A DNA stretch of 63,972 nt, the filler included, from Candidatus Hydrogenedentota bacterium (lineage in GTDB: Bacteria; JBFMHD01), in the NCBI GenBank assembly GCA_040752395.1. It is 4 parts of 4 records of this genome, joined end to end, with 100 filler letters (N's around TTAATTAATTAA, not from the genome) between each part and the next. Parts side by side here need not be neighbours in the genome. Positions count along the whole stretch, not along the records: positions 49,025 to 63,972 come from JBFMHD010000056.1; 3 more parts are not named here. One strand, written 5' to 3'. Positions 44,661 to 63,257 of the stretch are shown here, piece by piece. Under the pieces are notes generated by a model, which was not told the DNA's origin, did no database searches, and saw nothing but the letters and a program-made list of their open reading frames with translations. Numbering within the stretch: position 1 is the stretch's first letter; each line of letters opens with the position of its first letter. The translations under genes were made by a program, and so were the position numbers.

Positions 44661-44708
44661 CTGAGAATGTGTGAAGATGCTCACTACAATTTTTTCACAC
44701 GTTCTGAG
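44661..44708. mobile_element. Miniature IS-end relic (MITE-like)
   Basis: TIR GAATGTGTGAA / TTCACACGTTC flanked by TGA on both sides; the same end occurs at 61-79. Confidence 0.5.
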
Positions 44709-44746
44709 GGGTTACAACTAAAACGTTTTAGCTAATTATATTATAC

Positions 44747-46102
44747 TTAAAAATTTATTCTTTTCAAGAGTAATTTTAAATTTTTTTCATCACAGGATTC
44801 TGCAATGATTCGAATAATAGGCTCTGTATTGGACGGTCTGATATGAAGCCAGTATGACGAGGTATAAATTTTAATACCATCACGGGTATCTAACCTCTCG
44901 CCAGGGATAAGTTTAATGGTCTTTTTAATTCTGTTAAACTGGTTTTTTTCTTTAAGTTTTATTTTCTTTTTTAAGGTTCTGTATTTTTTCACAGATTTGA
45001 ATATCTGGGATAATGGCTTATCTTCTTTTGCCATAAGTTCAAGAATTAAAGCCATAGAAATAAAAGAATCTCTACCATAATGCATAGCAGGATGTATAAC
45101 ACCACCATTACCCTCGCCACCTATACAGGCTCTTTTGTTCTTCATCATAGAGACAACAAAGACCTCACCTACTTTTGAATAATAAATTTTACCTTTGTAT
45201 TTTAAGACCTCGTCTCTTACAATGTAAGAGGTTGAGAGATTGGTTACAACGGCTCTATTCTCATTTTCTTTACTTAGAACGTTTCTTACACATAAAGCAA
45301 GTGTCATATCTTCTTGAGGCACCTCACCCTTCTCAGATATCAAAACCAATCTATCAGCATCAGTATCCTGTGCAAAACCGACATCATATTCTCCCTGCCG
45401 AATTATATTAGATGTAATTTTTAAATTTTCAGCTGAAGGCTCAAGAGGATGAAGGAATTCACCGTCCATATATAATCCAGAACCACTAACATCACAGCCC
45501 AATTCTTTTAATAATTTTATACCTATACAGGCGCCAGCACCACCATTAGCATCAAGAAAAACTCTGAACCTCTTTTTTTTAATATTTTTTAAATTGACTA
45601 TCTTCTTTATTTTAGAGATATATTTATCAACCCACGTGTTATCTACCCTGAAGTCACCCCTGCTTTTATTATTAGCCCATTTTAAAGTATCCTTGTTTTT
45701 TAAATAATTACTTAGTTTTGCTATTAACTTTTCATCAAAAAAAGTACCATCATCTTTAATAAACTTTAGACCGTTCCACTCTGGAGGATTATGGCTCGCA
45801 CTTATTACTATGCCACTGGCTGACTTGTAATATTCTACTGCGAACTGAACACAAGGTGTCGGTGCCATACCGATGTCTATTACATCAAACCCGCATAATG
45901 AAATAACAGATGAAATAATTTTTGAAAAATTTAAGCTTGTGTTTCTGGTATCCCTGCCTATGACAATAGTTTTATTTTCTGTTATCCGGACTGTTTTTAA
46001 AAAAGCCCTGACAAGATCATTCACGATATCAGGCGTAAAACTTTCGCCAACTATGCCACGAGCTCCCGAAGGTCCGAGAATAAGACTCATATTACTTCTC
46101 AC
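44747..46102 (-). CDS. Phosphohexomutase (phosphoglucosamine mutase/phosphomannomutase family)
   Basis: SASHNP, DTDADR, GGEGNGG, RPSNTEP. Confidence 0.9.
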   Translation of the reverse strand: MRSNMSLILGPSGARGIVGESFTPDIVNDLVRAFLKTVRITENKTIVIGRDTRNTSLNFSKIISSVISLCGFDVIDIGMAPTPCVQFAVEYYKSASGIVISASHNPPEWNGLKFIKDDGTFFDEKLIAKLSNYLKNKDTLKWANNKSRGDFRVDNTWVDKYISKIKKIVNLKNIKKKRFRVFLDANGGAGACIGIKLLKELGCDVSGSGLYMDGEFLHPLEPSAENLKITSNIIRQGEYDVGFAQDTDADRLVLISEKGEVPQEDMTLALCVRNVLSKENENRAVVTNLSTSYIVRDEVLKYKGKIYYSKVGEVFVVSMMKNKRACIGGEGNGGVIHPAMHYGRDSFISMALILELMAKEDKPLSQIFKSVKKYRTLKKKIKLKEKNQFNRIKKTIKLIPGERLDTRDGIKIYTSSYWLHIRPSNTEPIIRIIAESCDEKNLKLLLKRINF

Positions 46103-46116
46103 TTCTTACTTCTATT

Positions 46117-46452
46117 TTATATTTCTGGTTGCTGAGGGGGTGCTTCTTTAATGAATTGATGTACAGGCTTCCACGAACTACCCTCTTTTTTCCAATTAGC
46201 TAATCTCCAGTTAATTGATTTTAGATTAGGAACCTTTCGTAACTCTTTATCAAGCATTTTCATATGTAGCGGTTTAGAGAACTTATCCTGCTCTCTGTGA
46301 CTCCTTGGAAGTAATACACCAATAATCACAACATCACCCTGAGTTGACGAAATCGTTAAGAGATTGGTATTGATCCCCCTTTTTGTGAGCATCTGCTCTA
46401 TACGAATGTTTATTACTCTATCTTCAACACTCATTTTTTCCCGCCTTTTCAA
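46117..46452 (-). CDS. Hypothetical protein
   Basis: 111-aa ORF co-oriented with the operon; ATG start is probably at MSVED. Confidence 0.6.
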   Translation of the reverse strand: MKRREKMSVEDRVINIRIEQMLTKRGINTNLLTISSTQGDVVIIGVLLPRSHREQDKFSKPLHMKMLDKELRKVPNLKSINWRLANWKKEGSSWKPVHQFIKEAPPQQPEI

Positions 46453-46543
46453 CCTGTTATGAGCCCTTTTTACAACTCATAATGTATAAATTTAAAACAA
46501 TTGTCAAATACTTTTGCTTTCTGGTTCTTTCGCTATCTTGCTT

Positions 46544-47272
46544 CTAATATATCAACGTTGGACTAAAGTAGTTGTTAGTAAATAGGTATTTAGGATTTGA
46601 GACCTCAGTGTATATATCCTTCACATTGTTAAATATTGTGGCGTTATCGTCAAAATATTCTGCGTATCCTTTTCGTAAATCTCTTAAAGCTGTTAATAAT
46701 TCGATGCCCTCGATAGAGGGGATAAAAATATTATGAGTCAACCATTTAATAGTATTATCAATCTTCTCTACAATTTCTTTATACTTACTATTTTTATCTT
46801 TTAATAATTCTATTCTATTTTTAATTTCAGTATCAAAAGTTTTACCAATGAGGTCTGACTCATCTGTGAGCACGTTCATCATTGCTCTGATTCTGAAGAA
46901 ATTTACCATTGCTATAAATTTTCCAAGATTAGATAAGCTCTTTGTCTCAGTGATAAATAAGATATTTCTGAAATAGACAAAGAACGGGGCGGCATCATTG
47001 AATATTTCTGATAAAAGAAATATGCTGTCTTTTTCAGAAATAATATCAAGTAATTTTCTCTTGCTGGATAAAATATCGAGTCCTATAGTCTTATCTTCAC
47101 TTTTATTAATAAATTCATTATTTTTCCATGTGTAAATATCATAACCTTCCTCAATAACCACTTTCTGTCCGGGATGTATTATAGGTAATATAACAGGCTG
47201 TTCAGGGAGAGTTGACTCTTTTTTTTCTTTAATTTTTTGTAGTTTCTGTAATGCTCTTTGTATCTGGCTCAT
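46544..47272 (-). CDS. Hypothetical protein
   Basis: 242 aa; MSQIQRALQK N-terminus. Confidence 0.65.
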   Translation of the reverse strand: MSQIQRALQKLQKIKEKKESTLPEQPVILPIIHPGQKVVIEEGYDIYTWKNNEFINKSEDKTIGLDILSSKRKLLDIISEKDSIFLLSEIFNDAAPFFVYFRNILFITETKSLSNLGKFIAMVNFFRIRAMMNVLTDESDLIGKTFDTEIKNRIELLKDKNSKYKEIVEKIDNTIKWLTHNIFIPSIEGIELLTALRDLRKGYAEYFDDNATIFNNVKDIYTEVSNPKYLFTNNYFSPTLIY

Positions 47273-47376
47273 AATGGTGTTTCTTTAAGTAACTGGTCAG
47301 TTATAGATGATATTATAGAAGCAAGAAGCAAGATAACGGATAAAGAAAGATAACGAATGTCTTCTGTCTTCTATAC

Positions 47377-48846
47377 TTATTCACTACTTATAACTGAGTG
47401 GTTACTAAAATTGTTGGATATCGTTTTACTTTCTTTTAACTGTGTTCTTTCCCCCCACCATCTCTGTATGTCCCCCATTGTTACAAAGATAATCAATGAT
47501 ATTAGAAGTATAAAAAATACATTTTGTAATGCAGCCTGTATTTTGGGGTTTACGGGTATTCGGAATATCGATTCAAATAATAGAAACATAATCCAGCCGC
47601 CATCGAGGACAGGGATAGGTATTAAATTTATAAACCATAATGAGATGGTAAGTAAGGCAACCATTCTAAGTAATTCTTCTATACTCACGGCAGCACGTTC
47701 ACCTGTAAGATGAATTATTCCGAGCGGTCCTGCGAGCTGGTCTAATGATATTTTTCGTGTTATAAGAAGTTTTAATGCCCAGATAGTGCGGTCAACAATA
47801 AATACAATCTCATCATACGAAATCTTCAATGATTTGATAAGACTGAACCTTAATTTTCTGTTTTCTGGATATATACCTATTTGTGAGATAAAGATGTCTT
47901 TTTTACCCTGCTCGATATATACTCTTCCGTTAAAAATAAAAGTATCACCTGTGTATTCTTTAATCGCTTCTGTTGATATTTTTCTTTTCACTGGTTTAAT
48001 CTCTACTTCAAAAATTTCTTGCTTGCGTTTTATTTTTAGTTTTACTTTATCAGTGCGGCTAAAAAATATTTCTCGCTTTACATCAGTAAATTGAGTGCAG
48101 GTGTAATCATTAACGCTTAAAACCCAATCACCTTTTAGTAGTCCTGCATTATAAGCAGGATAATTTTTTATGACTTTACCGATTACGGGCTCTTCAAATG
48201 AGGTAAAACCAACATAGAACTGCTCTGATTTTGGATCTTTTTCAGGTTTTACTTTAAACTCTTTTATTAATCCATCACGCTTAATTTTAAAATTTAGTTC
48301 TTTTCCCTGTGAGTTTCGAATGATTCGCTGGATATCAAAAAAAGTAGTAGTTTTTTCATTATCTATCTCTAATACCTCATCACCCTCTTTTAACCCGGCA
48401 ATCTTAGCTGGTACATCTTTTATTTCACCTGCTGATGTTACGTATTCTAAAATAGTCCCGATTTTAGGAAGAAAACCCTCTGTTGCAGTACCTATAACCC
48501 AGTAAATAAACACAAATAACAAAAAACCGAAAATAAGATTGACCAACGGCCCTGCTATAACAATAATAATTCGCTGATATACAGGTTTGGATGCGAACTC
48601 ATCAGGTGCACCTGTTTTCTGCTCGTTCGGGTCTTCGCCTTTCATTTTCACATAGCCACCAAATGGTACGGCGGATATTTTATACTCAGTATCATTGTAT
48701 TTCAATCCAATTAATTTAGGGCCGAACCCGAGTGAAAAGACTTCTACTTTTACTTTAAAAAGTTTTGCAAAAATAAAATGACCGAACTCATGAATGAAGA
48801 TTAATATACCAAGAAAAAATACAGCGATAAGATAATTGAAAATCAT
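47377..48846 (-). CDS. rseP: RIP metalloprotease RseP
   Basis: HEFGH, SLGFGP, GGYVKM, AGPLVN, two PDZ domains, NLIPIPVLDGG. Confidence 0.95.
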   Translation of the reverse strand: MIFNYLIAVFFLGILIFIHEFGHFIFAKLFKVKVEVFSLGFGPKLIGLKYNDTEYKISAVPFGGYVKMKGEDPNEQKTGAPDEFASKPVYQRIIIVIAGPLVNLIFGFLLFVFIYWVIGTATEGFLPKIGTILEYVTSAGEIKDVPAKIAGLKEGDEVLEIDNEKTTTFFDIQRIIRNSQGKELNFKIKRDGLIKEFKVKPEKDPKSEQFYVGFTSFEEPVIGKVIKNYPAYNAGLLKGDWVLSVNDYTCTQFTDVKREIFFSRTDKVKLKIKRKQEIFEVEIKPVKRKISTEAIKEYTGDTFIFNGRVYIEQGKKDIFISQIGIYPENRKLRFSLIKSLKISYDEIVFIVDRTIWALKLLITRKISLDQLAGPLGIIHLTGERAAVSIEELLRMVALLTISLWFINLIPIPVLDGGWIMFLLFESIFRIPVNPKIQAALQNVFFILLISLIIFVTMGDIQRWWGERTQLKESKTISNNFSNHSVISSE

Positions 48847-48924
48847 AATGTTGTAAAAAGTATTATGTAACGCCTAAGTCTTCGGTGTAGTTTCTTTAAC
48901 TTGCTTCTTGCCTCTATTTTCTGA

Positions 48925-49024
48925 NNNNNNNNNNNNNNNNNNNNNNNNNNNNNNNNNNNNNNNNNNNNTTAATTAATTAANNNNNNNNNNNNNNNNNNNN
49001 NNNNNNNNNNNNNNNNNNNNNNNN
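48925..49024. other. Scaffold gap with artificial linker
   Basis: N run containing TTAATTAATTAA. Confidence 0.98.
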
Positions 49025-49190
49025 TTGAGTCTTGAGTCCTGTTTTGACTCACGACTTGCGACTTGTGACTCACGACTCTTTTTATATCATCTTTAGTTTT
49101 TCATCCTTTGTGTAGAGCGCAAAAACCCAAAAACGCAATAACCCAATAGTGTAGAGCGCAAACCGCGCTCATGTTGACTCCTTCGAAAAA
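49025..49190 (-). repeat. Composite intergenic repeat
   Basis: Inverted copy of 26869-26966 fused to a relative of 13400-13507. Confidence 0.9.
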
Positions 49191-49264
49191 GTTCTGTCTC
49201 TTTAATATCATTTTTATAATATAAAGGCAAGAAAAATTATTTAAAAAATCTGTATTCCCGAATA

Positions 49265-50047
49265 CTAAAATTTTGTGCCTGCACTTATACGAAAACTCTT
49301 CTGGTCTATGATATTCCCTTCAAGATTTAATATAAGATTAGTCATTCTAAAATCAGCGCCTAATTTTAACGACATATATTCTGTATTTTTACCCGGCGTT
49401 TTGAGGATTCGAATGTTAGAGGTATATAAATCTCCATCTAAGTCATCACGCGTATAACCCACACCTATATAAGGTTTAAGATAGTATAGCTCACGGGGGC
49501 TTGCATATAAAGGTTTGTTAAAATAAATCTTTTGTTCAAGAAATAACCAGGCACCGTATTGAACATTCTTTAAAGCCCCATACTCTACATTTACATTCCA
49601 TCCTGATACTTGAATTTTTCCTCTCAAATTAAGCCCTGTTTTAAATTCGAATAAATCAGCTTCAAGTCCTACTCCCCATAAAAATGAATTTTTGGCTTTA
49701 AAATTTAATGTTCCAACAGTATCACCAAAATTATGATACTCACCTTTCAAATCAGTTATCCCTGTTTCTAAAAAGCCAGCTATGGTTTTAGTAAAATTTA
49801 TTTTTGTTTGTAATGCGAAATTGTTCATATTAATAGTTTGTTTATCTTTATAAAAAGGCAATAAGGTAGCTGTGTCAGTTGTTCTATAATCGAGTTCTAT
49901 ATCTCTTGAGATTCTCTCATAAAGTATAGCAAAAGAAATAAACCTGTTTTCATAGATATTATAATAATCTCTTGCATTTAACCTGGTAGAGAATAATAAA
50001 AATAATGATATAAAAACAAAAAACAGACCCAGCAATCTTTTCATCAA
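49265..50047 (-). CDS. Outer membrane beta-barrel protein
   Basis: Signal peptide, alternating strands, KPYIGVGY, terminal FRISAGTKF. Confidence 0.7.
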   Translation of the reverse strand: MMKRLLGLFFVFISLFLLFSTRLNARDYYNIYENRFISFAILYERISRDIELDYRTTDTATLLPFYKDKQTINMNNFALQTKINFTKTIAGFLETGITDLKGEYHNFGDTVGTLNFKAKNSFLWGVGLEADLFEFKTGLNLRGKIQVSGWNVNVEYGALKNVQYGAWLFLEQKIYFNKPLYASPRELYYLKPYIGVGYTRDDLDGDLYTSNIRILKTPGKNTEYMSLKLGADFRMTNLILNLEGNIIDQKSFRISAGTKF

Positions 50048-51555
50048 TATTCAGACAATGCCTCAATATTATTTCTTGCAATCTCATTAGATGGGTCTAT
50101 CTCCAGTACCACTTGCCACTCTTTTATAGCATTCTGTATATCATAAAGTTTAAGATATGTGAAACCAAGATAAAGATGTACATCAGAGTTTCTTGGCTGT
50201 AAATTGATAGCTGATATATAACTTTCTTTAGCTTTTGAGTATTCTTTAATAGTATAATAACAGGTACCAAGATTATAGAAAGCCCTGAAACTTGACGGAT
50301 AAAACGATGCAGCCTCACTAAAATATTCGATAGCTTTAGTAACTTCACCTCTTAAAAAAGCGAGTTCACCTTCTTGTAAATATTCTTCGAGGTCACGGAT
50401 AACTTTAACTGGTTTAATGGGTTTGACTGATGGTCTCGGAATGGTTTCAGGTGGCGTTAATTTAACAGGGTATTCCTTGTCTCGAACCGGTGGTTTTGGA
50501 ATCTTTTCTTCTTTTTTAACGCCGACCTCTTTTTCAGCCGATTTCTTTAATTGTTCAAGCAACGCCTCTCTTGAGCGTGTGACGACTTTTCTTTCTCTTG
50601 GTTTGCCGAAACTTACAGAAGCACCGATTCGATGAGTTGATTCAAGGTCATCTTTAGGTATGAATGCATAATCAAGCGTAAAGTCGCTATATCTTATACC
50701 AAAACCCACAGAAAACGCTTTTGTTGCATCTCTATTGGAATCATAACCGCACCGTATAGAAAGTGGCTGTAATCCCCAGAACTCACCACCAATATTCAAT
50801 CCTATCTCATCATCATTAATAATCTTTTTAACATCAATAAATAAATTAAGCCGCTCTTCAAAAAGATGGATAGCACATCCTGCCTGTATGGTAATAGGCA
50901 GGTCCTCGTCCTCGACGTCATATTTTAATGAAGAACCGACGTTTCGTATACTCATTCCGAGATCAAACCCTTCAACAGGTGTGTTCCAGATAACCCCAAA
51001 ATCTAATGCAGCGCCACCTGAAGACTGGGTTTCAAGTTTTTCACGAAGGAATTTTAAGCTACCACCAAAAATCCAGTAAGGTAGCGGTCTCACACCATAA
51101 GATAAAGTAAATAAAAAATCATTGCCGCTAAATGTTCCGATGCCACCATAAGGGTTTGCTAATGTTGTTCTTTGAATATCACCATAATCAATCCACGTTA
51201 TGCCGGTTCCAAATATACCCTGGCCAAGTGGAACACTGTATGATAGGAAGTCCTGATAAATATCTTCAAAAAGGGCATGATGCATAAAATATACATTATG
51301 TCTTGTGTTACGTTCAAGACCTGCGGGATTCAAAAATAATGCGGTTGCTATATCACCTGCTTCAGCTACACCACTACTACCAAGTGCTGCTGTTCTTGCG
51401 CTCGGGTTTATGTTCAGGAATAAAGCTGAGTTTCGACCCGCATCGTTTGTAGCATAAGAAAGAGAAGCAAGAAGCAAGAAATAAGAGACAAGAAAGCTTT
51501 GAATCTTTAAATCTTTAAATCTTTGAATCTTTGAATCTTTCAATCTTTCAATCAT
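50044..51555 (-). CDS. PorV/PorQ-like outer membrane barrel with Pro-rich linker and C-terminal TPRs
   Basis: FLNINPSARTAALG, LFLNPAGL, ALDFG, IRNVG, LDYAF..THRIG; TPR motifs AFYNLGTCY and VHLYLGFTY. Confidence 0.8.
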   Translation of the reverse strand: MIERLKDSKIQRFKDLKIQSFLVSYFLLLASLSYATNDAGRNSALFLNINPSARTAALGSSGVAEAGDIATALFLNPAGLERNTRHNVYFMHHALFEDIYQDFLSYSVPLGQGIFGTGITWIDYGDIQRTTLANPYGGIGTFSGNDFLFTLSYGVRPLPYWIFGGSLKFLREKLETQSSGGAALDFGVIWNTPVEGFDLGMSIRNVGSSLKYDVEDEDLPITIQAGCAIHLFEERLNLFIDVKKIINDDEIGLNIGGEFWGLQPLSIRCGYDSNRDATKAFSVGFGIRYSDFTLDYAFIPKDDLESTHRIGASVSFGKPRERKVVTRSREALLEQLKKSAEKEVGVKKEEKIPKPPVRDKEYPVKLTPPETIPRPSVKPIKPVKVIRDLEEYLQEGELAFLRGEVTKAIEYFSEAASFYPSSFRAFYNLGTCYYTIKEYSKAKESYISAINLQPRNSDVHLYLGFTYLKLYDIQNAIKEWQVVLEIDPSNEIARNNIEALSEY

Positions 51556-52448
51556 CGTATCACCATTAATTTACCAGTTTTCTTTTCACCTGTTGCTGAT
51601 GTTACAGTATAAATATATAAACCACTGGCAACTTCGTGGCCTTTATCGTTTTTTACATCCCAGTTATATTGGGCGCCACCTGAAAAATTTATCACGCGAA
51701 CAAGCTCACCTGAGATGGTATAGATTCTTATTTGAACAGGATTAGTTAAACCGGCGAAGACAATACCTGATGTTGGATCACTGCTTGAATAGGTTTTACC
51801 AGTGTTTGCATCACCATCATTTGGTCTATATGGATTTGGATAGACCGTAAAATTACTCAAACTGCCTTGAGCCTGGGCAAGTGTTAATGATAATAAATTA
51901 TATGAGTTTATAGATATGGGAACAGTATCTCTTTGATAAATATCATCCAGGAAAAATAAATATATATTACTTAAGGTTACAGTTGTTGTTGCGCTTGCTT
52001 TGGTTCTGAATTTAAATGTTGTCATCATACCTTCGCCAGTTAAACTATCTTTTTCATCTTTTACACAGCAAAATACCTCTATAACACCATCTCTTATAGT
52101 ATCAGCAAAAACTGTACTGTCTGCATTAAGAGGTACCCCATATATAAAAAACCAGCTCTGAGAAGGAGCTGAGATCAATTCAAGTATCGAAGTGGTATAA
52201 TTTAAATTAAAACTATAAGCCCATAATTGACCAGATATTGTATCAGCATAAACACCAAGATCAATCTCCTGGCCTAACTGTAAATCTGTATAAGTTACAG
52301 TATCTACTATCATATCCTGGCCGGTAATAGGTGTAACTGACTTTGTAATCCCAACTATACCTGTATCATCAGCAGATAAATTAATGCTTAAAATTAGTAG
52401 GTTTAAAATTAAAAAAATATGATTTAACTTTTTAGTTACCATATCCAT
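51552..52448 (-). CDS. Secreted cohesin-like domain + T9SS-CTD/FlgD-Ig C-terminal domain protein
   Basis: Signal peptide; YSFNLNYTTSILEL..LTGEGMMTTFKFR (cohesin-like); VYPNPY..IRIYTISGELVR..WDVKN..VASGLYIY..GKLMVIR. Confidence 0.75.
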   Translation of the reverse strand: MDMVTKKLNHIFLILNLLILSINLSADDTGIVGITKSVTPITGQDMIVDTVTYTDLQLGQEIDLGVYADTISGQLWAYSFNLNYTTSILELISAPSQSWFFIYGVPLNADSTVFADTIRDGVIEVFCCVKDEKDSLTGEGMMTTFKFRTKASATTTVTLSNIYLFFLDDIYQRDTVPISINSYNLLSLTLAQAQGSLSNFTVYPNPYRPNDGDANTGKTYSSSDPTSGIVFAGLTNPVQIRIYTISGELVRVINFSGGAQYNWDVKNDKGHEVASGLYIYTVTSATGEKKTGKLMVIR

Positions 52449-55400
52449 ACCGTATCATTAACTCTATCATATCCCACGAATCAATTTTGTTTGTACTATC
52501 GATGCTTATACCATTATTAAAAGTTTTAGTCTTAACAATATCATACTTATAAACAGTGCTGTCCCACAAACTAACATTATCGCTTCTTCTCATCCCGAAA
52601 TATTTCAACATATTACTTAAATCATTATCATCCACGTCACCATCAGCATCTAAATCTCCAGCTAAAATTGTATCACCTATTGTTACCTTAACATCAGTAT
52701 TTGTTTCACGATTACCTACATAATCCTGAGCCCTGACAGCAAAAGTAAATGTTTCACCAAAATTTATGGCAAACGGTATTGTGTAAGAAACATCGAATGT
52801 ATTTCCTATTGCTGAATCATAATTTACAACACCGTATGTGCCTTTGTAATTTATACCACCTGTATCAGAGAAGATATAGTAAGAGATAGTGTCTGTTGAA
52901 ACAGAGGCTGACCAGGATAATGTAACTGTTCCGGACTGATTTACAGTATATATAAGATTCGTTGGTGCCAATGGGTCTTTATTATTAATAATAACTCTAA
53001 CCGTACCTGAAGATGAAGTATCAACACTGTCCCTGTATTGATATCTGATATCTATTGGGATTTCATCTACTTCTGAGGGCGAAATTAATATTGTATAAGA
53101 AGCGGTATTAGAAAAAGTTTGCCATGATGCAGTGGTAAATACATCAGGACCCCATATACCTATATAGCTGAAAGAATCCTGACCGAATTTTATTTCAAGC
53201 CCCTGTGTATCACCGTTTAAAACACCAAAATGTAGAATAATACTGGTATCAACTGATAGAGAGTCACCTCTTACAGTAGTATCAGCCTCTAACCAGACAT
53301 AGGGATTGGGTGGTCCAAGTGGCAGTACTGTATCAAGTACTACGGTATCATAACCAGCTTGTCCCTGTAACCCAGCTGAGTCAATCAAGAACGCATAAAC
53401 ATATTTGACCCCATTAGTTCCGATTAATCTCACTTGTGTAGTTGTACCAGTTGATGTTGTTAAAGTTATTGTATTACCGTAAATATCTGTGCTATAAATA
53501 GTGCAACCTCTGATATCAGTATCAATCGCGGTATCGAAGGCGATTGTAACATTTACATAAGTGGTTCCTGTATAATCCCGGCCGTTTATTGTGGAGTCAG
53601 AACTTAAAGTGACTGTTGGTGCCTGAGGTTCGTCCTGGTCTAATATTATACTATCGCTTATTAAAACTATATTACAGGTATCGCTTGTCGGGTCAACATT
53701 GTCACGTAATTGAACATATATGGTTTTAATTCCGTCAACAGGTCCTAAGTTAAAAGAGACTGTTGTCTCCATATCCACGCCTGCAGCAAAAGGGAAATCA
53801 TTCCAGGGGATACCAGGTATCACAAGGTCAGAAAGCGACTCGCTCATCCTGTAATATGTAGCAGCACGAGAAGTAATTTTCACAGAAACCAGAGTATTGG
53901 TAGTATATAAAGCACCATTATTTATAATCATAGAATTATTAATTGGTGGTCCACCATTAATACCAAATGGATTCTTTCTATCAAGTATAAGATAAATCGA
54001 ATCATTCTGTAAATTAGACCGGTTCCCGGATAAATCTTCAAAATTGATATAAAATAAATATTTCGCATCACCATTAACATCATTGAGATTAAAGGTTGAA
54101 TTATTAGCATAAGTAACAAAATTTGTAGGAGGATAATAAGTATCAATAGACATTAACACCGGCGTGTCACCATACGTACCTGTATCACTCGCATAAATAG
54201 AATCAAAATTAATATTTGTATTTGTTATGAATGTCCCTGTAGTTATACCAAAATAAATACATCGTGGTTTATTACTATCAATAATAGTTATTGTGCCAGT
54301 AGCTGTAATGGTTCCATCAGTAAATGTAATTGTTAACGATTGTTGAGGATTTATATCCACTTTTGTTTTGATGATTAAAGTTTTATCTAATACACCAGAT
54401 ACCCAGCCACCTAAATTAGCAGGACTCACAACATAGCTATTATCCACGCTAACTGTTACACTTGTTCCATAAGACATATCAATATAGCCGCCAAAATCAA
54501 GTGCGGTTATTGTTATAGAAAATGAGTCGCCTGCCTGGACAGTTGCTTGCGGTAAACTTAAACTGAAACTTTTAGCAGGTCCATACGTGCAGGATACAAT
54601 AATAGTATCATATATAACATAATTTTCATCTCGAGCAGTGATTACTATAGTGCCTGTTTTATTAATCGAGACATAAGTAGTTGAATAACCGATACCTGTA
54701 AAAGTATTAGCACGAGAAGGTAAAATAGTTCCTCCTTCTGAAATCTCAAGATACGGACTGAAACTATTTGAATCATAAGTTATATTACCCTCTCTATCGT
54801 AAGCTGTGATATATAAAATAAATGGTACACCGACAGAGACATTTGAGCTTGAAGCACTTAATACAAATGAATCGGTCTTCCCCGGGGTTACGGTTATTTG
54901 TGTCGTACCTGTAATGTTCAGGGTACAGGCTGAAATAGTTACAACTGCTGGCCGATTTATAGATACATTTGTTTGAGAGACACCAGCACCTGTAAATTGT
55001 GTAGAAACCCATGGGATTATCGTACCTGTATCAACATTAATAGCAAAGGTGCAGGAAGTACCATTGGAATCAGGCGAAACATTTTCACCTAAATCAAGCG
55101 CAGTAACTGTTAAAGTAAATGACTGTCCCACAGAAACAATTGATTGTGAAGTTGATAAAACAAAAGAAACCCATGCCCCCGGTGTTACGGTTATAGCAAC
55201 AGTACCTGTATGATTGCTTCCATCATGAACTGTTATTACAATATTACCTGCTCGGGTTACTGAAACAACAGCAGTGGTTGTACCACCATTAAATACACCT
55301 GAGACATAGGGCACAATTGTTCCAGAAGATATATTAAATAAAGCCTGGTTACCATCAAACATTGTAGTAATAGTCTCTGAACTATCATAAGCGGTTATAG

Positions 55401-57687
55401 TCAAAGTAAATGCAACACCAACAGATACACTCGATACTGAAGAAGACATAATAAAATGATCAAGAGCACCAGCACCAAGCGAGACAGTAGTGGTACCTGT
55501 AACGGTTCCATTACGGGCTGTAATAACAACCTGACCTGAAGCTGTTATTGTAACCATCACTGTGATAACAGAATCAGTAAAAGCAACACTGTCAGGTACA
55601 ATGATCCCACCACCACTCACAGATAATAAAAGTGTATCACCTACAGCACTATCATTTGTTAAATTTAATGCAGCATCTACTGATGTAATTGTAAGATAAA
55701 AACCAATACCTGATGTTTGGTTTGTAGAAGCAGGACTAAGCAAAAATCTGTTCAATGGTCCAGGTGTGATATAAACACCAACAGTATCAAATATCGAACC
55801 ATCATACACAGTTATAATCTGTGAACCAATCTGCGTAAGTGTAACACTTACCTGTCTTATTCCATTAACCCATCCCGTACCAACACTCGTAGGCTGCATA
55901 GTAAGATCAGTACTTGTACAGGGGATATCAGAGTCATAACTATTATAAATTAAACCGAACTGGTCATACGCAGTAATAGATAAAATAAATCCAAAACAGG
56001 CACTGTCCTCAGCCGGTGCAGAAATATAAAGTTGTGCTAATTTTTGATTAACTTGAAAAGTATCTGTAGTAGACCAGCCAGTGGTATTCCCTAAATTATC
56101 TTGCGAAAACATTCTCCAGTAATATATAGCTGAATCAAGATTTGATGCTGTACACGATGTCGCAGTAGAATCTAACCATAAGTCACTATCTGTAATCAAC
56201 GCAAAACTTGGGTCAGTTGATAATTGTATCCTGTATTTATAAAGTCCTGAGATAGTATCAGACGAAGCAGACCAGGTTAATAAAATAGTTGTTTCAGTAG
56301 TATCAGATATATCCGTAAGCCCTGGCATTGTAGGTGGCCAGTAATCCACCATAAATGATGTATCAACAGTTAGAGTGTCTGAAAACTGGCTGTAATTGGT
56401 TGCTGTGTCCTGGGCTATTATCCTGACATAATACGTGTCACATCTTGAAAAAGTGTACCATACCTTTGTGTCACCATATACCCATGTATCAAGATAGGTA
56501 TTATTAAAATTCGGGTCAGTATCAACTTCAACGCGGTATCTCTTAAGTCCGCTCATCGTGTCACTTGAAGCAACCCATTGGAGATAAAAACTTTGGGCTG
56601 TTGTATCTATTTGGGGAATAAACTGAGGTGTAGACGGCGAGGTGCGGTCTACACATACTTTCGTATCTATTGTACCTGTGTCTGAATACCTTACATTAGT
56701 AGCACTGTCAACCGCAAGTATCCTTATATAATATGTATCCTCTGCTGGCGATGCTATTGTCTGGAATGTATCACCATACACCACTGAGTCCGCAAATAAA
56801 CTTGAAAAATCTGGTGTGTTATCTACCTGAACCCGATAGTAACTCACCCCGGATTGTGTATCAAATGAACTAACCCAGGTTATGTATAAATCCCCATTCG
56901 TATCAGAATGCGGGATTAAAACTGGCTGTGATGGCGGCACTCGGTCTACACATACTTTCGTATCTGTAGTAATAGTGTCTGAATAATCACTTAACTGAGC
57001 CGAGGTATCTTCAGCTCTAATTCGGATATAATAAGTATCTTCAGGCGGAGAAGATATTAATAAATAGGTATCACCGTAAACTGACGAATCAGCAAAAGGG
57101 CTTGAAAAATTAGGGGCATTATCTACTTGTACTTGATAACGTTTTACACCACTTACTGTATCTATAGAGGCTACCCATCTAATCAACAAAGAAGCATTAG
57201 TATCAGATAGAGGTATAAGCGAGGGTGTTGTAGGTGGTTCATAATCTGCCCACATGGTTGTAAAGCCGGTATCACCTGCATCATCAATGTCAACATATAT
57301 TTTAACAGAGTCTCCTGAATTAATTTGTATTGTTTGAGAATCTGTTGGTGGAGCGGATGAAATTTTAATATATGCAGAGAATATCCCATCATTATATGTG
57401 GTATCACCTGTAATTGGTGGGGCTCCTGTAACAGTATCAGCAAGCCCGATCTCGATAGTATCAATGCCGTAAGCAACGCTGAATCGAGTTACGGCGTTGG
57501 TATCAACTGTGTCAGTGGTTACACTGTCATAAGCTTTAATCCATACAGTATCACCATCATTGAAATATATTGAAAAATTAAATGCATCACTATCGCGGTA
57601 AGTATTAACATTGTCAACTACTGCAAATAGTTTATAAGGGATGATACATAATATAATAATATAAACTAATACCTTATAGGTTTTCAT
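52432..57687 (-). CDS. Giant secreted Fn3/Ig-repeat surface protein with a C-terminal dockerin-like domain
   Basis: Signal peptide MKTYKVL..LFA; tandem Fn3-like and Ig-like units; terminal GDLDADGDVDDNDL..YD..NKIDSWDM. Confidence 0.75.
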   Translation of the reverse strand: MKTYKVLVYIIILCIIPYKLFAVVDNVNTYRDSDAFNFSIYFNDGDTVWIKAYDSVTTDTVDTNAVTRFSVAYGIDTIEIGLADTVTGAPPITGDTTYNDGIFSAYIKISSAPPTDSQTIQINSGDSVKIYVDIDDAGDTGFTTMWADYEPPTTPSLIPLSDTNASLLIRWVASIDTVSGVKRYQVQVDNAPNFSSPFADSSVYGDTYLLISSPPEDTYYIRIRAEDTSAQLSDYSDTITTDTKVCVDRVPPSQPVLIPHSDTNGDLYITWVSSFDTQSGVSYYRVQVDNTPDFSSLFADSVVYGDTFQTIASPAEDTYYIRILAVDSATNVRYSDTGTIDTKVCVDRTSPSTPQFIPQIDTTAQSFYLQWVASSDTMSGLKRYRVEVDTDPNFNNTYLDTWVYGDTKVWYTFSRCDTYYVRIIAQDTATNYSQFSDTLTVDTSFMVDYWPPTMPGLTDISDTTETTILLTWSASSDTISGLYKYRIQLSTDPSFALITDSDLWLDSTATSCTASNLDSAIYYWRMFSQDNLGNTTGWSTTDTFQVNQKLAQLYISAPAEDSACFGFILSITAYDQFGLIYNSYDSDIPCTSTDLTMQPTSVGTGWVNGIRQVSVTLTQIGSQIITVYDGSIFDTVGVYITPGPLNRFLLSPASTNQTSGIGFYLTITSVDAALNLTNDSAVGDTLLLSVSGGGIIVPDSVAFTDSVITVMVTITASGQVVITARNGTVTGTTTVSLGAGALDHFIMSSSVSSVSVGVAFTLTITAYDSSETITTMFDGNQALFNISSGTIVPYVSGVFNGGTTTAVVSVTRAGNIVITVHDGSNHTGTVAITVTPGAWVSFVLSTSQSIVSVGQSFTLTVTALDLGENVSPDSNGTSCTFAINVDTGTIIPWVSTQFTGAGVSQTNVSINRPAVVTISACTLNITGTTQITVTPGKTDSFVLSASSSNVSVGVPFILYITAYDREGNITYDSNSFSPYLEISEGGTILPSRANTFTGIGYSTTYVSINKTGTIVITARDENYVIYDTIIVSCTYGPAKSFSLSLPQATVQAGDSFSITITALDFGGYIDMSYGTSVTVSVDNSYVVSPANLGGWVSGVLDKTLIIKTKVDINPQQSLTITFTDGTITATGTITIIDSNKPRCIYFGITTGTFITNTNINFDSIYASDTGTYGDTPVLMSIDTYYPPTNFVTYANNSTFNLNDVNGDAKYLFYINFEDLSGNRSNLQNDSIYLILDRKNPFGINGGPPINNSMIINNGALYTTNTLVSVKITSRAATYYRMSESLSDLVIPGIPWNDFPFAAGVDMETTVSFNLGPVDGIKTIYVQLRDNVDPTSDTCNIVLISDSIILDQDEPQAPTVTLSSDSTINGRDYTGTTYVNVTIAFDTAIDTDIRGCTIYSTDIYGNTITLTTSTGTTTQVRLIGTNGVKYVYAFLIDSAGLQGQAGYDTVVLDTVLPLGPPNPYVWLEADTTVRGDSLSVDTSIILHFGVLNGDTQGLEIKFGQDSFSYIGIWGPDVFTTASWQTFSNTASYTILISPSEVDEIPIDIRYQYRDSVDTSSSGTVRVIINNKDPLAPTNLIYTVNQSGTVTLSWSASVSTDTISYYIFSDTGGINYKGTYGVVNYDSAIGNTFDVSYTIPFAINFGETFTFAVRAQDYVGNRETNTDVKVTIGDTILAGDLDADGDVDDNDLSNMLKYFGMRRSDNVSLWDSTVYKYDIVKTKTFNNGISIDSTNKIDSWDMIELMIRYGYGN

Positions 57688-57916
57688 TATATATAACTGC
57701 ACCAAGTAAACTTCCACACCCTATGCTCATCCACACACATAAGCTACCGCCACCAACGTCCTGGCTGTGCGGAGTAATCATAGGTGTGTGGGCTTATGCC
57801 CGGGGTGTGGTGGTAAAAAACTTTTTATTAATTAATTATTATATACAATATCGGTAAAAAAACAAGCTTTTCTTTAATAATATTTAACATCTGGTTTAAG
57901 GCATAAAGACACAAAG

Positions 57917-58705
57917 TTAAAGTGTCTTTGAAAAGTATAAAGAGAAAAAATTGGCTGGATTTTTAGGTACAAACCCTTTTATATCACTACCTTCAAGAAC
58001 TGATTTAGGGTTATCATAGACCAGAATTTCCGCCATTTTCTCTCCAACAATTTCTGCAGCTTTATCTCTTGCTTGAGAAAGAACTGGTTTTCTTGTTGTT
58101 GTGTTATGCGAGTCGGTCCCGATAAAATGTATAAGTCTGCATTGTAATAATTTAAAAGCAAGTTTTTGTATATCCTTGCCAAAAACACCGGTTATACTTG
58201 GTGCATCCATCTGGCATAAAACACCCTTTATAACTAAATCATAAATAATAGAAGGGTCTTCAATGACTGTTTTAATACGCTCTGGGTGACTTAATACTGG
58301 TATAATCCCGTCAATAAGGCATTGGAAGATCAATAGTTCAGCCCAGTCAGGGATATTATATAAAGAAAACTCGATTAATAAGTATCTGTTATTTTTGTTT
58401 AGAGGCAAGATAGTTTTTTTCTGTAATAAATGTTTTGTCATATCTTCAGATGCCATATTTTCAGATGCAGGATGAAGCTTAACATTTATCTTTTCATTTT
58501 CTGCTATTTCGTTTAGAAGACTGACATTAGAATGTATTAATTTTACTTTTTCTTTATCTACACTATTTGTGAGTAGATGCGGTGTAGCTATTATATCAGT
58601 GATACCATCCTGTTCTGCGATACGCATCATTTCAAGCGAGGTTTCAAAATCATCTGGTCCATCATCAAGATTTGGTAATATATGAGAATGTATGTCAATC
58701 ATACT
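57917..58705 (-). CDS. PHP-family protein tyrosine phosphatase (CpsB/CapC/YwqE)
   Basis: IDIHSHILPNLDDG, ATPH, HPER, GTDSHN..RKP. Confidence 0.9.
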   Translation of the reverse strand, partial: SMIDIHSHILPNLDDGPDDFETSLEMMRIAEQDGITDIIATPHLLTNSVDKEKVKLIHSNVSLLNEIAENEKINVKLHPASENMASEDMTKHLLQKKTILPLNKNNRYLLIEFSLYNIPDWAELLIFQCLIDGIIPVLSHPERIKTVIEDPSIIYDLVIKGVLCQMDAPSITGVFGKDIQKLAFKLLQCRLIHFIGTDSHNTTTRKPVLSQARDKAAEIVGEKMAEILVYDNPKSVLEGSDIKGFVPKNPANFFSLYFSKTL

Positions 58706-58765
58706 CATCATCCTGATTCGTAATCCCTCAATGGTTAGATAACGAAAGAGGCAAGAAGCAAGAAG

Positions 58766-59683
58766 CTAACGTGGTTGATATCCTTTTAAGAGTTCAGTAT
58801 CAGTCATTATTCTTTTTCCGGGTCGCTGAATAACATTTAATCTTATAACCGCATCTTTACATTTTATAAACAGACCCTTTTTAACATCTGAGATTACAAT
58901 ATCGCCACAAGAGAAATTATTGCAATTAATATTATTGTAAACTTCAACTTTAAGTATCTTCCATACCTCATTTCTAATTTGTAAATGAGCAGCTGGTTGC
59001 GGTGACAATCCTCTTACTTTTCCTAATATTTTGTTTGCTTCTTGATCCCAATCTATAAAGAAATCGTCTTTCCGTAATACCCTTGCGTATGTTGCTTTAG
59101 AATCGTCCTGTGGTTGTGGCTTGATATTATCAATATTATTTAAAACATCAATCAGTAAATCAGCACCTGTTTCAAACAGCCGTAAAGATAGAGATAGATA
59201 ATTGTCGGAAGGATCTATTTTAACATTGGTTGATGCAAGTATATCGCCAGCATCCATTTTAAGAGCAGTGTAATGTATTGTTACACCTGTCTCTGCTTTA
59301 TTATCAAATAACACATAACGTACAGGAGCTGCACCCCTGTATTCAGGTAATAGAGATGGATGAACATTCAAGGTTTTCAAGCGCGGGAATGAGAATAATA
59401 TTTCAGGTATATATAAACCGAACGAAGCTACAACCCCGATATCAGGATTTAAATCTTTAACCCAATTATAGACTTCATCAGAATTAAGTTTCAGAGGATG
59501 AATAACATTTATATTATTACAAAGACAGAATTGTTCAACCTCGGTTGGGATGATATGTCTTCCCCTACCCCGGGGTTTGGCCGGTTTCGTAATACAGCCA
59601 CATAATATAAAATTTTTATTGTTAAAAAGCTTTTTTAGAATTATAAGTGAATCCGAACCAGAGCCATAAAAAAGTATCTTCAT
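58766..59683 (-). CDS. fmt: Methionyl-tRNA formyltransferase
   Basis: PRGRG, LNVHPSLLPEYRGAAP, MDAGDI; start set at MKILFYG. Confidence 0.93.
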   Translation of the reverse strand: MKILFYGSGSDSLIILKKLFNNKNFILCGCITKPAKPRGRGRHIIPTEVEQFCLCNNINVIHPLKLNSDEVYNWVKDLNPDIGVVASFGLYIPEILFSFPRLKTLNVHPSLLPEYRGAAPVRYVLFDNKAETGVTIHYTALKMDAGDILASTNVKIDPSDNYLSLSLRLFETGADLLIDVLNNIDNIKPQPQDDSKATYARVLRKDDFFIDWDQEANKILGKVRGLSPQPAAHLQIRNEVWKILKVEVYNNINCNNFSCGDIVISDVKKGLFIKCKDAVIRLNVIQRPGKRIMTDTELLKGYQPR

Positions 59684-59779
59684 AAGTAATAATAAGATAA
59701 CGAAAGAAGCAAGAAGCAAGAAACGAGAAGAATTAGAAAGTAAGATTAACAAACTCCGCTTCAAAACTGAGGGATTAGT

Positions 59780-60295
59780 TTAAAATTTGTAATCTTTGAC
59801 AAAAATTTTTTCTATTCTTTCCCTCTCCTCTTTATTAGCTATATGATCAATCAACAATATACCATTAAGATGATCAATTTCGTGTTGTATAGCTCTTGCT
59901 ACGAGGCCAGAGGATTTAAATCTATTTTTTTTACCTGTGATATCTAATGCTTCAGAGATAATCGTATCAGGTCTGAATATTTTTACGTAGACACCTGGGA
60001 AACTTAAACAACCCTCTTCAAATTCCTGTTTTTCTTTAGATTTTTTAATTATAGACGGATTAATTAAAGCTGTTCTGAATCTTTTGTTGTTTTCGAGCGG
60101 GACATTGAGTACTATAATACTTTTTAATGCTCCGGTTTGTTGTGCTGCTAAGCCTATGCCCCTGGATTGGTCTAAAAGTGAAAACATAGAGTCAACGTAT
60201 TCTTTAATTCTTTTAGAGACTTTTGTCACAGGTTCTGATTTTTTTCTTAACACCGGGTCAGGATATATCCTTAAAGTTAAGACCAAGTTTGTCAT
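59780..60295 (-). CDS. def: Peptide deformylase
   Basis: GIGLAAQQ, EGCLS, QHEIDHLNG. Confidence 0.96.
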   Translation of the reverse strand: MTNLVLTLRIYPDPVLRKKSEPVTKVSKRIKEYVDSMFSLLDQSRGIGLAAQQTGALKSIIVLNVPLENNKRFRTALINPSIIKKSKEKQEFEEGCLSFPGVYVKIFRPDTIISEALDITGKKNRFKSSGLVARAIQHEIDHLNGILLIDHIANKEERERIEKIFVKDYKF

Positions 60296-60325
60296 CCTCC
60301 AGGGTTGTATTCCCGCGGTTACGAA

Positions 60326-62248
60326 TCACGGTATTTTTAATACTGGTTTCGAGTATTTGGGGATCTCTTTCTTGATACTTGATAAATCAGGATTAATAAT
60401 TTCTTCTTCCTCGACGCCTTTACCCACAATGTGTGGTGTTACAAATATGATAAGTTCCTGATTGAGTTTTTCCTGTCTTTTCCTTTTAAATAAATTACCA
60501 ATTATCGGGATATCACCAAGTAGCGGTGTTTTTGCCTCTTCTTCTTCTATCTCTTCTCGCAGAAGACCACCTATCGCGATGGTTTTATTATTCATAACAT
60601 CAAGTATCGTGGATGCATTTTCACTTGAAATAAGAGGATAGTCTATCGCATCAATTGTTTGATTACCATGAAAACTCCGTACCGATGGATATATCTCCAG
60701 GTTGATTATTTCATTTTCTTTTATACGTGGTGTAACTTTTAAAACGATCCCGATATTAGGTATCTCACTTACGGTTCGTGTTGTAATAACGTTACCCTGA
60801 TTATCAAGTTGTGTAGTTTGAGCCGAGATATACCAGGCATTGGTTACAACAGACATAACAGCCATCTCATTATCAAGTACTAAAACCCTTGGTTTAGATA
60901 AAATTTTAGCCGTACCCTGGGAAACCAGGAATTCAATAAGATTTGTAATAGTAAAATTTTTAAACTTACTATTTATGGTAATATCTGTAGAAGAGAGATT
61001 TAAATCAAGGTCAATGGTTCCTGTATATAACGGATTTCGTCCTCTGTTATCAGCTACTGTCCAGTCTATACCCATATTTTTAAAAGCATTGGTATTAACT
61101 TTTAAAAAGTATGCTTCAATAAGTATCTGTTTTTTAGTGGTATCGATCTTTGAAATGATGTCTTTTTTAAATTGTTCAATCACATAAAATGTTGATGTAA
61201 CAATAACACTGTTGGTTTTAATATCTACGGAGAGACTACTTGTAATGCCAGATGGAGTAATATTAGTTAATAACTGGCTAAGAATTGGCACGATATAACT
61301 TTGTTGCGGCTCTATCTCACGACTGATACTACTCCCCACAGGGGTTACTTGCTGTACAGGTGATTTAGATAAAGAGATATGCTCTAATCTTATAACCTCG
61401 GTTACAAGGAAATTTATACCAACAGAGATTTTATCTTCACTCTCGAGCATTGAGGTTTTCAAAGTTTTAACAACTTCTTTTAATGCGTCACAGGGTTCTA
61501 AATCTTTTAGAGGAAAATTTATTTCAAAACTTCTTTCAGATGGTGCAACTATTATAGGCTTATTAATCTTATCAGAGATAAAATCACAGAATTGACCAAG
61601 ACTTAATGTGTCACTGCCAGTAACATCGTAATAGATACAATTGTCTTTAACTTTTATTTTGGTTAACCTGTCGAACATCTTTTTATTCTTGTTTATCTCA
61701 GCTTTATACTGATTGTATTTTAGATAATCTATTATTTCAGTTATCTGCTCAATATTTTCAGGATAATCCTTTATAACAACGGTTCGGGTTGCATCGTAGA
61801 TAGTAAATTTACCTGATGTTGAAATCATATTATTAAGAATATTATTTAATATATCAGCATCCAGATCACCGATATCAATGGTAACGGTCCGAGCTTTTAA
61901 ATGTGCTGGTACTTGTTGAGAGAGCGAGGGGTTTTCAATGAAATAAATATTATCATATTTGTACAGCCGTAAATCAAGTGAGTTACATATAGTCCAGAGA
62001 GCCTGTTCCGGGGTTACATTGTCAAGATTTATGTTAACGTATAATGGTTCATTATAACTTTTATTTGCATCCATACCAGCATTCTTTCCAAGCACGATAT
62101 TTAATCCGCTCTGTTCAGATATAGCCCTTATAACATCCTCAAGCTTTGCGTTTTCAAAGTCAATATTTAAAGTATTTGATAGTGGTGAAGAAAGTACAGT
62201 GGAATAAATAAAAATCAGTAATAATAATATAAAACTTCTTTTGAACAT
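60326..62248 (-). CDS. pilQ: Secretin (PilQ/GspD family)
   Basis: QILIEA, LGIDW-like MGIDW, ILSKPRV, IAIGGL, KTPLLGDIPIIGNLFK, ELIIFVTPHI. Confidence 0.9.
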   Translation of the reverse strand: MFKRSFILLLLIFIYSTVLSSPLSNTLNIDFENAKLEDVIRAISEQSGLNIVLGKNAGMDANKSYNEPLYVNINLDNVTPEQALWTICNSLDLRLYKYDNIYFIENPSLSQQVPAHLKARTVTIDIGDLDADILNNILNNMISTSGKFTIYDATRTVVIKDYPENIEQITEIIDYLKYNQYKAEINKNKKMFDRLTKIKVKDNCIYYDVTGSDTLSLGQFCDFISDKINKPIIVAPSERSFEINFPLKDLEPCDALKEVVKTLKTSMLESEDKISVGINFLVTEVIRLEHISLSKSPVQQVTPVGSSISREIEPQQSYIVPILSQLLTNITPSGITSSLSVDIKTNSVIVTSTFYVIEQFKKDIISKIDTTKKQILIEAYFLKVNTNAFKNMGIDWTVADNRGRNPLYTGTIDLDLNLSSTDITINSKFKNFTITNLIEFLVSQGTAKILSKPRVLVLDNEMAVMSVVTNAWYISAQTTQLDNQGNVITTRTVSEIPNIGIVLKVTPRIKENEIINLEIYPSVRSFHGNQTIDAIDYPLISSENASTILDVMNNKTIAIGGLLREEIEEEEAKTPLLGDIPIIGNLFKRKRQEKLNQELIIFVTPHIVGKGVEEEEIINPDLSSIKKEIPKYSKPVLKIP

Positions 62249-62249
62249 T

Positions 62250-63253: not shown

Positions 63254-63257
63254 ACTA

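Follow-up and report, generated by a model that had tools for sequence, protein, structure and literature searches.

A dockerin-like, cohesin, sorting-domain and PorV-type barrel operon in a Candidatus Hydrogenedentota bacterium: a candidate surface-display cassette

Among the genes of a Candidatus Hydrogenedentota bacterium is a cluster of four that encodes a giant repeat protein with a dockerin-like tail (P0001), a small protein with a cohesin and a C-terminal sorting domain (P0002), a barrel of the PorV/PorQ family (P0003) and a second predicted barrel (P0004), and that we describe here as a candidate surface-display cassette. The window, that is the whole stretch of DNA analysed, is 63,972 bases long and consists of four contigs of one metagenome-assembled genome (MAG) with runs of N between them; it is not one stretch of chromosome. 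The MAG (G000 below) consists of 349 contigs totalling 2.84 Mb and is 93.8% complete and 0.45% contaminated. The entire locus lies on contig C302, which is 14,948 bp long and occupies window positions 49025-63972. Its features, in window coordinates, are the following.

52432..57687, minus strand: P0001, 1751 aa from the ATG at 57687; the frame is open from a GTG at 57717, giving 1761 aa
52456..52680, minus strand: dockerin-like module of P0001, residues 1680-1754 of the 1761-aa frame, an F-hand pair with a 17-aa linker insert
51552..52448, minus strand: P0002, 298 aa, its start overlapping the end of P0001 by 17 nt
51957..52358, minus strand: cohesin of P0002, residues 31-164
51558..51845, minus strand: C-terminal sorting domain of P0002, residues 202-297, of the type-A type IX secretion system (T9SS) / FlgD_ig kind
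50044..51555, minus strand: P0003, 503 aa, ATGA overlap
50605-51438, minus strand: barrel of P0003, PorV/PorQ family, residues 40-317
50056-50388, minus strand: three tetratricopeptide repeats (TPRs) of P0003, residues 390-500, preceded by a Lys/Pro-rich linker
49265..50047, minus strand: P0004, 260 aa, TGATG overlap

The four minus-strand open reading frames (ORFs) overlap at their ends, by 17 nt between P0001 and P0002, 4 nt between P0002 and P0003, and 1-4 nt between P0003 and P0004. By inspection, each of the four proteins begins with a hydrophobic segment resembling a signal peptide. The 199-bp region upstream of P0001 is unique within G000, and since the contig stops 240 bp past P0004 the operon may continue beyond that gene. 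P0001 and P0002 are the sole adjacent dockerin-cohesin gene pair in the assembly.

A hidden Markov model (HMM) built from 17 cohesins, with P0002 left out, matched P0002 over residues 31-164 at E 2.1e-14 and was matched by no other member of the set of 5450 ORFs on which the in-genome HMM scans of G000 were run, so that P0002 can be taken as a cohesin protein and as the only one detected in this assembly. When residues 27-196 were run with HMMER against 1.84 billion representatives, 10 other proteins were found at E ≤ 6.4e-4. Nine of these exceed the Pfam Cohesin cut-off, the tenth being a low-complexity false friend, and they include one CBM3-X2-cohesin scaffoldin and two proteins with cohesins plus Por_Secre_tail. 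Searching the Protein Data Bank (PDB) with the P0002 profile does not constitute independent support, because the profile is dominated by its nine other cohesins; it matches the solved cellulosomal cohesins only remotely. The C-terminal domain (CTD) of P0002 (residues 203-296 of 298) scores 26.4 bits against TIGR04183 (cut-off 23) and 28.1 bits against FlgD_ig (cut-off 27), with Por_Secre_tail at 14.6 bits, below its cut-off of 27. The best NCBIfam match of this domain is the C-terminus of PorZ (51 bits). It is 50% identical to the CTD of a 4752-aa protein on contig C317, and the relatives found with the whole of P0002 share the CTD only (32-59% of the query covered). The 4752-aa protein was also considered as a fused cohesin and CTD, and was rejected since BLASTP similarity is confined to the CTD.

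The barrel of P0003 matches the PorV/PorQ family model NF033709 at 166.5 bits (cut-off 90) over residues 43-316. It falls below both equivalogs, with 116.5 bits against the 220 of PorQ (NF033711) and 60.8 bits against the 250 of PorV (NF033710), the PorQ model scoring higher; the match to NCBIfam PorE is weak, and TPR families are found in the tail. Searches for relatives in the contigs of other genomes gave 23 loci, 22 of which were rejected as matching only a short Lys/Ile/Gln-rich N-terminal peptide; the sole real relative of the barrel among them is in a WOR-3 MAG, at 27% identity. This peptide comprises the first ~20 residues of P0003 (window 51495-51555) and is encoded by a short direct repeat in the DNA, of the AAAGATT type; many unrelated MAGs, most of them Bacteroidota, contain matches to it at 50-85% identity. 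It could be a short repeat of wide occurrence or an artefact of the start region, and the true start of P0003 could be a later TTG. P0004 has a weak match to Pfam OMP_b-brl (E 0.014), no NCBIfam match and no paralogue in G000. The ESM Atlas groups it with outer-membrane β-barrels (score 0.98), with a structural template-modelling (TM) score of 0.76 to OMP barrels. An earlier, preliminary description of this DNA had called four overlapping, coupled genes, a secreted cohesin-like protein with a sorting-type C-terminal domain, a PorV-like barrel with TPRs and a second barrel, and all of these calls are borne out by the above.

In the Pfam scan of P0001 a single fn3 match exceeds the cut-off, and no catalytic family is matched. 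Searches by phmmer with segments of the protein indicate four to five Fn3-like repeats of ~100 aa (residues 160-553) and six Ig-like (immunoglobulin-like) repeats (residues 575-1140), in addition to further beta-rich domains and the C-terminal dockerin-like module. These repeat types recur at 25-35% identity in other giant proteins of G000, which end in a CTD of their own. Within the tail, repeat 1 has a canonical EF-hand loop and helix (GDLDADGDVDDNDL) and repeat 2 is a degenerate EF-hand (ISIDSTNKIDSWD). An HMM built from 29 Pfam-passing dockerins of other genomes, and run unfiltered on the 5450 ORFs, ranks P0001 fourth at E 0.008 with both repeats aligned (residues 1680-1754); three clear tails stand above it (E 5e-10, 2e-8 and 1e-4) and noise starts at E 0.8. 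The tail keeps three invariant Asp columns and a near-invariant one in a MAFFT alignment. Its natural phmmer matches in the PDB are mostly dockerins, at E 0.04-2.2 and over the first repeat only, and its nearest ESM Atlas clusters are dockerins (score 0.89), which is a lead only. AlphaFold2 (AF2) run on a 32-row dockerin alignment modelled the tail with a mean confidence (pLDDT) of 79.2, exceeding 90 over both loop-helix units, a fold partly imposed by an input alignment made of dockerins. In a Foldseek search of the PDB with this model the best match was 2y3n_B (E 0.021, TM by target 0.82, rmsd 1.8), and of the 24 rows listed, 23 are entries for a dockerin or a cohesin-dockerin pair. A word-index search with the tail found no relative beyond P0001 itself. 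We read the tail as a putative divergent dockerin in which the second calcium site is degenerate, and as the weakest link in what follows. The giant Fn3/Ig protein of the preliminary description is thus confirmed in its size, its repeats and its non-catalytic nature, and its dockerin-like EF-hand pair in a weaker form, as a divergent module on which Pfam is silent and to which our own HMM assigns E 0.008.

Given so marginal a dockerin call, cohesin-dockerin pairing might not occur at all: P0002 would then simply combine an Ig-like or sugar-binding domain with a CTD, as a small cargo on a private barrel, and P0001 an adhesin secreted independently, for example by type II/IV pilus-type machinery nearby, the two sharing an operon as surface proteins. 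Peer et al. are said to have noted in 2009 that non-cellulosomal cohesin-like and dockerin-like modules often have no known partners, and candidate machinery does exist, with secretin and PilO genes upstream on C302 and type II secretion system (T2SS) E/F and pseudopilin genes on a neighbouring contig of the window. Nevertheless the cohesin homology is strong, the tail of P0001 keeps the invariant Asp of both loops and lies at the extreme C-terminus as dockerins do, and dockerin, cohesin and CTD recur fused in the same order in other genomes. We consider this explanation improbable.

A PorV-type barrel and a type-A-like CTD raise the question of the secretion system. The preliminary description saw no other T9SS gene, which proves to be an artefact of the four-contig window. 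An SprA/Sov-like ORF of 1915 aa fills contig C85 (TIGR04189, E 5.6e-51, 173 bits, under the equivalog cut-off of 200). The model scan of G000 gave 23 PorV-family matches, 18 of them above cut-off, and an iterated in-genome HMM found 20 CTD proteins and 23 PorV-family ORFs, that is 19 and 22 besides those of the locus. The search for sprA and porKLMN suggested at that time gave this SprA/Sov-like candidate for the first and nothing for the second: no match was found in G000 to GldK, GldL, GldM or GldN (TIGR03525, TIGR03513, TIGR03517, TIGR03523). The FGE-sulfatase domain and GldM_1st likewise had no match in G000 and were both found in two Flavobacteriaceae MAGs which served as positive controls; the GldL and GldN searches had no such control. 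No PorU body was found in G000, the 12 matches to NF033707 all lying at model positions ≥956 of 1095 (the CTD part) with none over cut-off, and no PorZ body was found there either. PorP_SprF gave weak cross-matches on two PorV-family ORFs only. On its gene content G000 holds neither zero T9SS genes nor an ordinary full T9SS, and the possibility raised earlier, that such a full system explains the locus, is not supported, no GldK/L/M/N or PorU body having been found. With the genome 93.8% complete, a porKLMN operon may still lie on a single contig missing from the assembly. The organism had also been described as PolC-bearing; PolC is indeed in the same MAG, on contig C290, and since the locus is on C302 the tie between them rests on binning.

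The locus is one of many in G000 at which a barrel follows a cargo gene. A CTD protein is encoded directly upstream on the same strand of 14 of the 23 PorV-family ORFs, or 15 if contig C337 is counted, where a 125-aa ORF intervenes; of the others, three begin at the end of a contig and the ORF upstream of five encodes no CTD. The CTD cargoes are mostly giants of up to 4752 aa. Distances between CTDs and between barrels co-vary over 15 pairs (Mantel r 0.64, a value reached in 8 of 5000 permutations), which shows that cargo-barrel cassettes duplicate and diverge as units; specificity is not thereby proven. In the paralogous cassettes the giant bears the CTD itself; at this locus it sits on a separate small protein. 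A charged Lys/Glu/Pro linker is present in most of the paralogous barrels, together with a C-terminal domain of ~100-250 aa that is presumably periplasmic; the kinds of domain differ, and TPRs occur in three of the 23 ORFs. To our knowledge canonical PorV has no such linker-plus-domain tail.

The three clear dockerin tails of G000 belong to other proteins on other contigs.

C284, 12550-16854: clear dockerin tail, PLD plus LTD, 1434 aa
C284, 17824-24531: clear dockerin tail, LTD, 2235 aa
C112, 17292-24335: clear dockerin tail, M6 peptidase plus GH18

These three giants may share the single cohesin. P0002 could accordingly be a general cohesin anchor whose ligands are also, or instead, the three giants with clearer dockerins, in a minimal form of the enzyme display proposed for Ca. 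Stygibacter, with the tail of P0001 serving as a calcium-binding stabiliser or binding something else. The assembly holds one cohesin to four dockerin-type tails; the other three are far better dockerins (E 5e-10, 2e-8 and 1e-4 versus 8e-3), two of them exceed the Pfam threshold when the genome is scanned in six frames, and the GH18 and peptidase dockerin enzymes match those reported in parts of PMC8542988. Against this, the three genes are on other contigs with no cohesin alongside, P0001 and P0002 overlap by 17 nt as the only adjacent pair of their kind, and further cohesins may be missing from an assembly that is 93.8% complete. We hold the general anchor to be unlikely. On C284 (12550-34532; loci L032 and L033) the PLD-like/LTD-dockerin protein, the LTD-dockerin protein, a 2726-aa CTD giant and a PorV-family barrel are encoded in a row. 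This may be a second meeting place of dockerin proteins and a CTD anchor; the cohesin HMM found no cohesin in the row.

Comparison was made with 40 other genomes in one set and 200 in another, all related to G000 at the "same domain" level only, so that the lineage has no close kin among them. PorV-family genes (E ≤ 1e-25) occur in 15 of 41 genomes, in up to 15 copies elsewhere, G000 having the most at 18; the 15 all fall within the 16 genomes with CTD matches, and TIGR03517 has no match in any of the 41. In other genomes a PorV-family gene follows the CTD gene at seven of the nine best-CTD loci, and does so also in a WOR-3 MAG. Cohesins are present in 50 of 201 sampled genomes. At the best cohesin loci of 29 other genomes, cohesin and CTD are in one ORF in 11, seven of which have a dockerin as well, mostly in the order dockerin-cohesin-CTD. 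A Pfam check of eight ORFs confirmed cohesin plus CTD in the seven with full match lists, and the dockerin in one (L098). The occurrence of dockerin, cohesin and CTD in single proteins is, as a gene-fusion argument, in favour of a functional link between the tail of P0001 and P0002, and the locus reads as a split form of this recurrent dockerin-cohesin-CTD end. Stand-alone cohesin-CTD proteins are also known: in G002 (L126) a PorV-family gene comes after a gene for a cohesin-CTD protein of 394 aa, and G088 encodes a 301-aa protein of this type inside a cluster of five cohesin genes. At L119 a dockerin-ended gene is followed by a small cohesin gene. The cluster in G088 (L132, contig C6, ~51.9-62.6 kb) consists of consecutive genes for cohesin proteins of 1924, 328, 857, 301 and 193 aa, four of them ending in a CTD, and no PorV-family gene was found within 20 kb of it.

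The same fusions invite the view that P0001 and P0002 are a single "...-dockerin-cohesin-CTD" gene broken by a frameshift or by misassembly, since the module order across the two equals that of the fused proteins and the source is fragmented into 349 contigs. However, a stop codon ends P0001 after a complete module, P0002 has its own ATG and a typical hydrophobic signal peptide that would make no sense as an internal linker, and other genomes do encode cohesin-CTD proteins that stand alone, at 301-394 aa. An artefact of this kind is very improbable.

The reading we favour is a surface-display cassette in which a T9SS-type anchor is combined with a cohesin-dockerin joint and P0002 is the candidate adaptor for P0001 on P0003; we put its chances as about even. 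The adaptor logic fits because P0002 is the sole detected cohesin, overlaps a gene with a dockerin-like end and precedes its own PorV/PorQ-family barrel. The steps envisaged are all drawn from homology and gene order. Sec would export the four proteins by means of their N-terminal signal peptides, and P0003 and P0004 would insert into the outer membrane. P0002 would pass this membrane through the SprA/Sov-like translocon using its type-A CTD. Since no PorU sortase was found, the CTD would stay uncleaved and without a lipid link, and would keep P0002 non-covalently on its cognate barrel P0003, as PorZ is kept on PorQ and PorU on PorV. The exposed cohesin would then capture the divergent, calcium-type dockerin of P0001, the 1751-aa protein being displayed as an adhesin-like fibre. 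The TPR tail of P0003 would lie in the periplasm, where it may serve to fasten the barrel to the translocon, to the wall or to incoming cargo.

A number of observations weigh against this scheme. Pfam Cohesin (PF00963) gives P0002 21.3 bits (E 3.2e-4), under the 24.1 cut-off, P0002 is not listed in the six-frame PF00963 scan of G000, and its single-sequence AF2 model is unusable (pLDDT 35.9). Pfam Dockerin_1 (PF00404) has no match to the 94-aa tail of P0001 up to E 10, and the six-frame Dockerin_1 scan of G000 lists three other tails and not this one. Our dockerin HMM gives the tail only E 0.008, the second calcium loop is degenerate, Foldseek found nothing in the PDB at E ≤ 0.001 with the tail model, and the fold of that model is itself partly imposed. 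The three giants with clearer dockerins could be the real, or additional, ligands of P0002. P0001 has no CTD of its own to take it across the outer membrane. The T9SS described so far depend on a PorLM motor for cargo release, and no such motor was found in G000. Lastly, we found no other locus homologous to the four genes as a whole.

The nearest described parallel is Ca. Stygibacter (Cloacimonadota), reported in 2021, for which passages of PMC8542988 propose that dockerin-bearing GH18, GH57 and peptidase enzymes dock on a 3755-aa cohesin scaffoldin whose CTD serves for attachment to the cell surface. Both that system and the present cassette are proposals; both belong to Gram-negative uncultured lineages and, as far as those passages go, the M6/GH18 protein ending in a dockerin is a further likeness. 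The scaffoldin described there has tandem cohesins and carbohydrate-binding modules (CBMs) over its 3755 aa, whereas the 298-aa P0002 has a single cohesin. Unlike Ca. Stygibacter, the neighbouring candidate ligand here is a giant non-catalytic repeat protein, and P0002 comes with a private PorV/PorQ-family barrel with a TPR tail and a second barrel in the operon. The combination of cellulosome-type and T9SS-type parts, pointed out in the preliminary description, had been proposed before, to judge from the same passages, and is common in the sampled genomes. On these comparisons the novelty is limited: the locus is a variant and not a new kind of system, similar combinations being present in other genomes.

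For the anchor the closest models are in Porphyromonas gingivalis, where according to parts of PMC5562754 PorU:PorV and PorZ:PorQ form 1:1 sub-complexes in which the barrels anchor PorU and PorZ. There too an outer-membrane barrel holds a surface protein, probably via an uncleaved CTD in the account given in those parts. The resemblance to PorQ-PorZ extends to the best match of the P0002 CTD, the PorZ tail, and to the higher score of P0003 on the PorQ than on the PorV model. In contrast to the P. gingivalis pair, P0003 fails both equivalogs and bears a TPR tail, G000 has 23 such barrels as opposed to two in the attachment complex, and no PorU, PorZ body, PorK/L/M/N or attachment step to A-type lipopolysaccharide (A-LPS) was found in G000. 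Type B CTD cargo is described, in sections of PMC9143113 and PMC12618676, as binding and needing cognate, genetically linked PorP/SprF-like barrels for secretion and anchorage, the examples there being SprB-SprF and PG1035-PorP-PorE, and a section of PMC12618676 has all type A CTDs of Bacteroidota using a single PorV. The present locus resembles type B cargo in that the cargo has an outer-membrane barrel of its own to which it is genetically linked, and PorE brings a periplasmic TPR domain which in P0003 is fused to the barrel; it differs in its type-A-like CTD and PorV/PorQ-family barrels. Our literature search turned up no relevant paper on the pairing of PorV-type barrels with cargo in lineages other than Bacteroidota, though such a paper may exist.

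In clostridial anchoring scaffoldins a short protein with a cohesin and a surface-anchoring module tethers a large dockerin-bearing protein. These are Gram-positive systems with an S-layer-homology or sortase anchor, in which the ligand is an enzyme-loaded scaffoldin; here, by contrast, a CTD and an outer-membrane barrel would be the anchor. In a cellulosome a scaffoldin with several cohesins collects enzymes that bear dockerins; in the assembly a single cohesin domain was detected, and the adjacent candidate ligand P0001 has no catalytic family. Cohesin plus PEP-CTERM proteins (P0041, P0047) and the stand-alone cohesin-CTD proteins follow the same logic of signal peptide, one cohesin and C-terminal sorting or anchoring, and L126 shares with this locus the PorV-family gene directly downstream. 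None of the small cohesin proteins elsewhere was seen with a dockerin-ended giant directly upstream, or with a TPR-tailed barrel and a second barrel.

Should the adaptor work in the proposed way, it would show that a sorting tail of the T9SS need not be part of the same polypeptide as its cargo, a cohesin-dockerin pair joining the two, and the locus would provide a ready template for modular surface display on diderm bacteria. The broader setting may be of more consequence: 14-15 of the 23 PorV/PorQ-family barrels stand beside their own type-A-like CTD cargo in a genome in which no PorKLMN or PorU was found. Private barrel-cargo linkage is also seen in unrelated sampled genomes and contrasts with the one-PorV rule for type A in Bacteroidota, which raises the question of what powers and releases secretion without a known motor. 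One speculative reading, which we think rather doubtful, is that this deep-branching lineage, and probably many non-Bacteroidota, have a motor-less relative of the T9SS: an SprA-like pore would be combined with a private PorV/PorQ-type barrel per cargo whose part is that of a lasting anchor rather than a shuttle, and at this locus the CTD would have become detached from its 190-kDa passenger and been rejoined to it by cohesin and dockerin. P0002 would in that case take its passenger through the pore already folded and non-covalently bound (piggyback secretion), or else pick it up on the outside, and the whole would amount to a naturally modular, swappable display system for Gram-negative surfaces.

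The remainder of the window is made up as follows, and gene neighbourhood is not readable across the spacers.

Window 1-16279: contig C290
Window 16280-16379: N spacer
Window 16380-32636: contig C291
Window 32637-32736: N spacer
Window 32737-48924: contig C292
Window 48925-49024: N spacer

The secretin and PilO genes upstream of the locus on C302 are at window 60326-63253. On C292 (window 35286-44579) a 1471-aa Big_1 Ig-like protein is encoded downstream of pseudopilin-like (N_methyl), T2SS-F and T2SS-E genes. The T2SS/pilus-type genes of these two contigs are a possible export route for surface giants that have no CTD. Two further gene pairs lie on other contigs of the window, namely a nucleotidyltransferase/HEPN pair of toxin-antitoxin-like appearance at 29858-30633 and a ThiF/JAB pair at 13572-14995.

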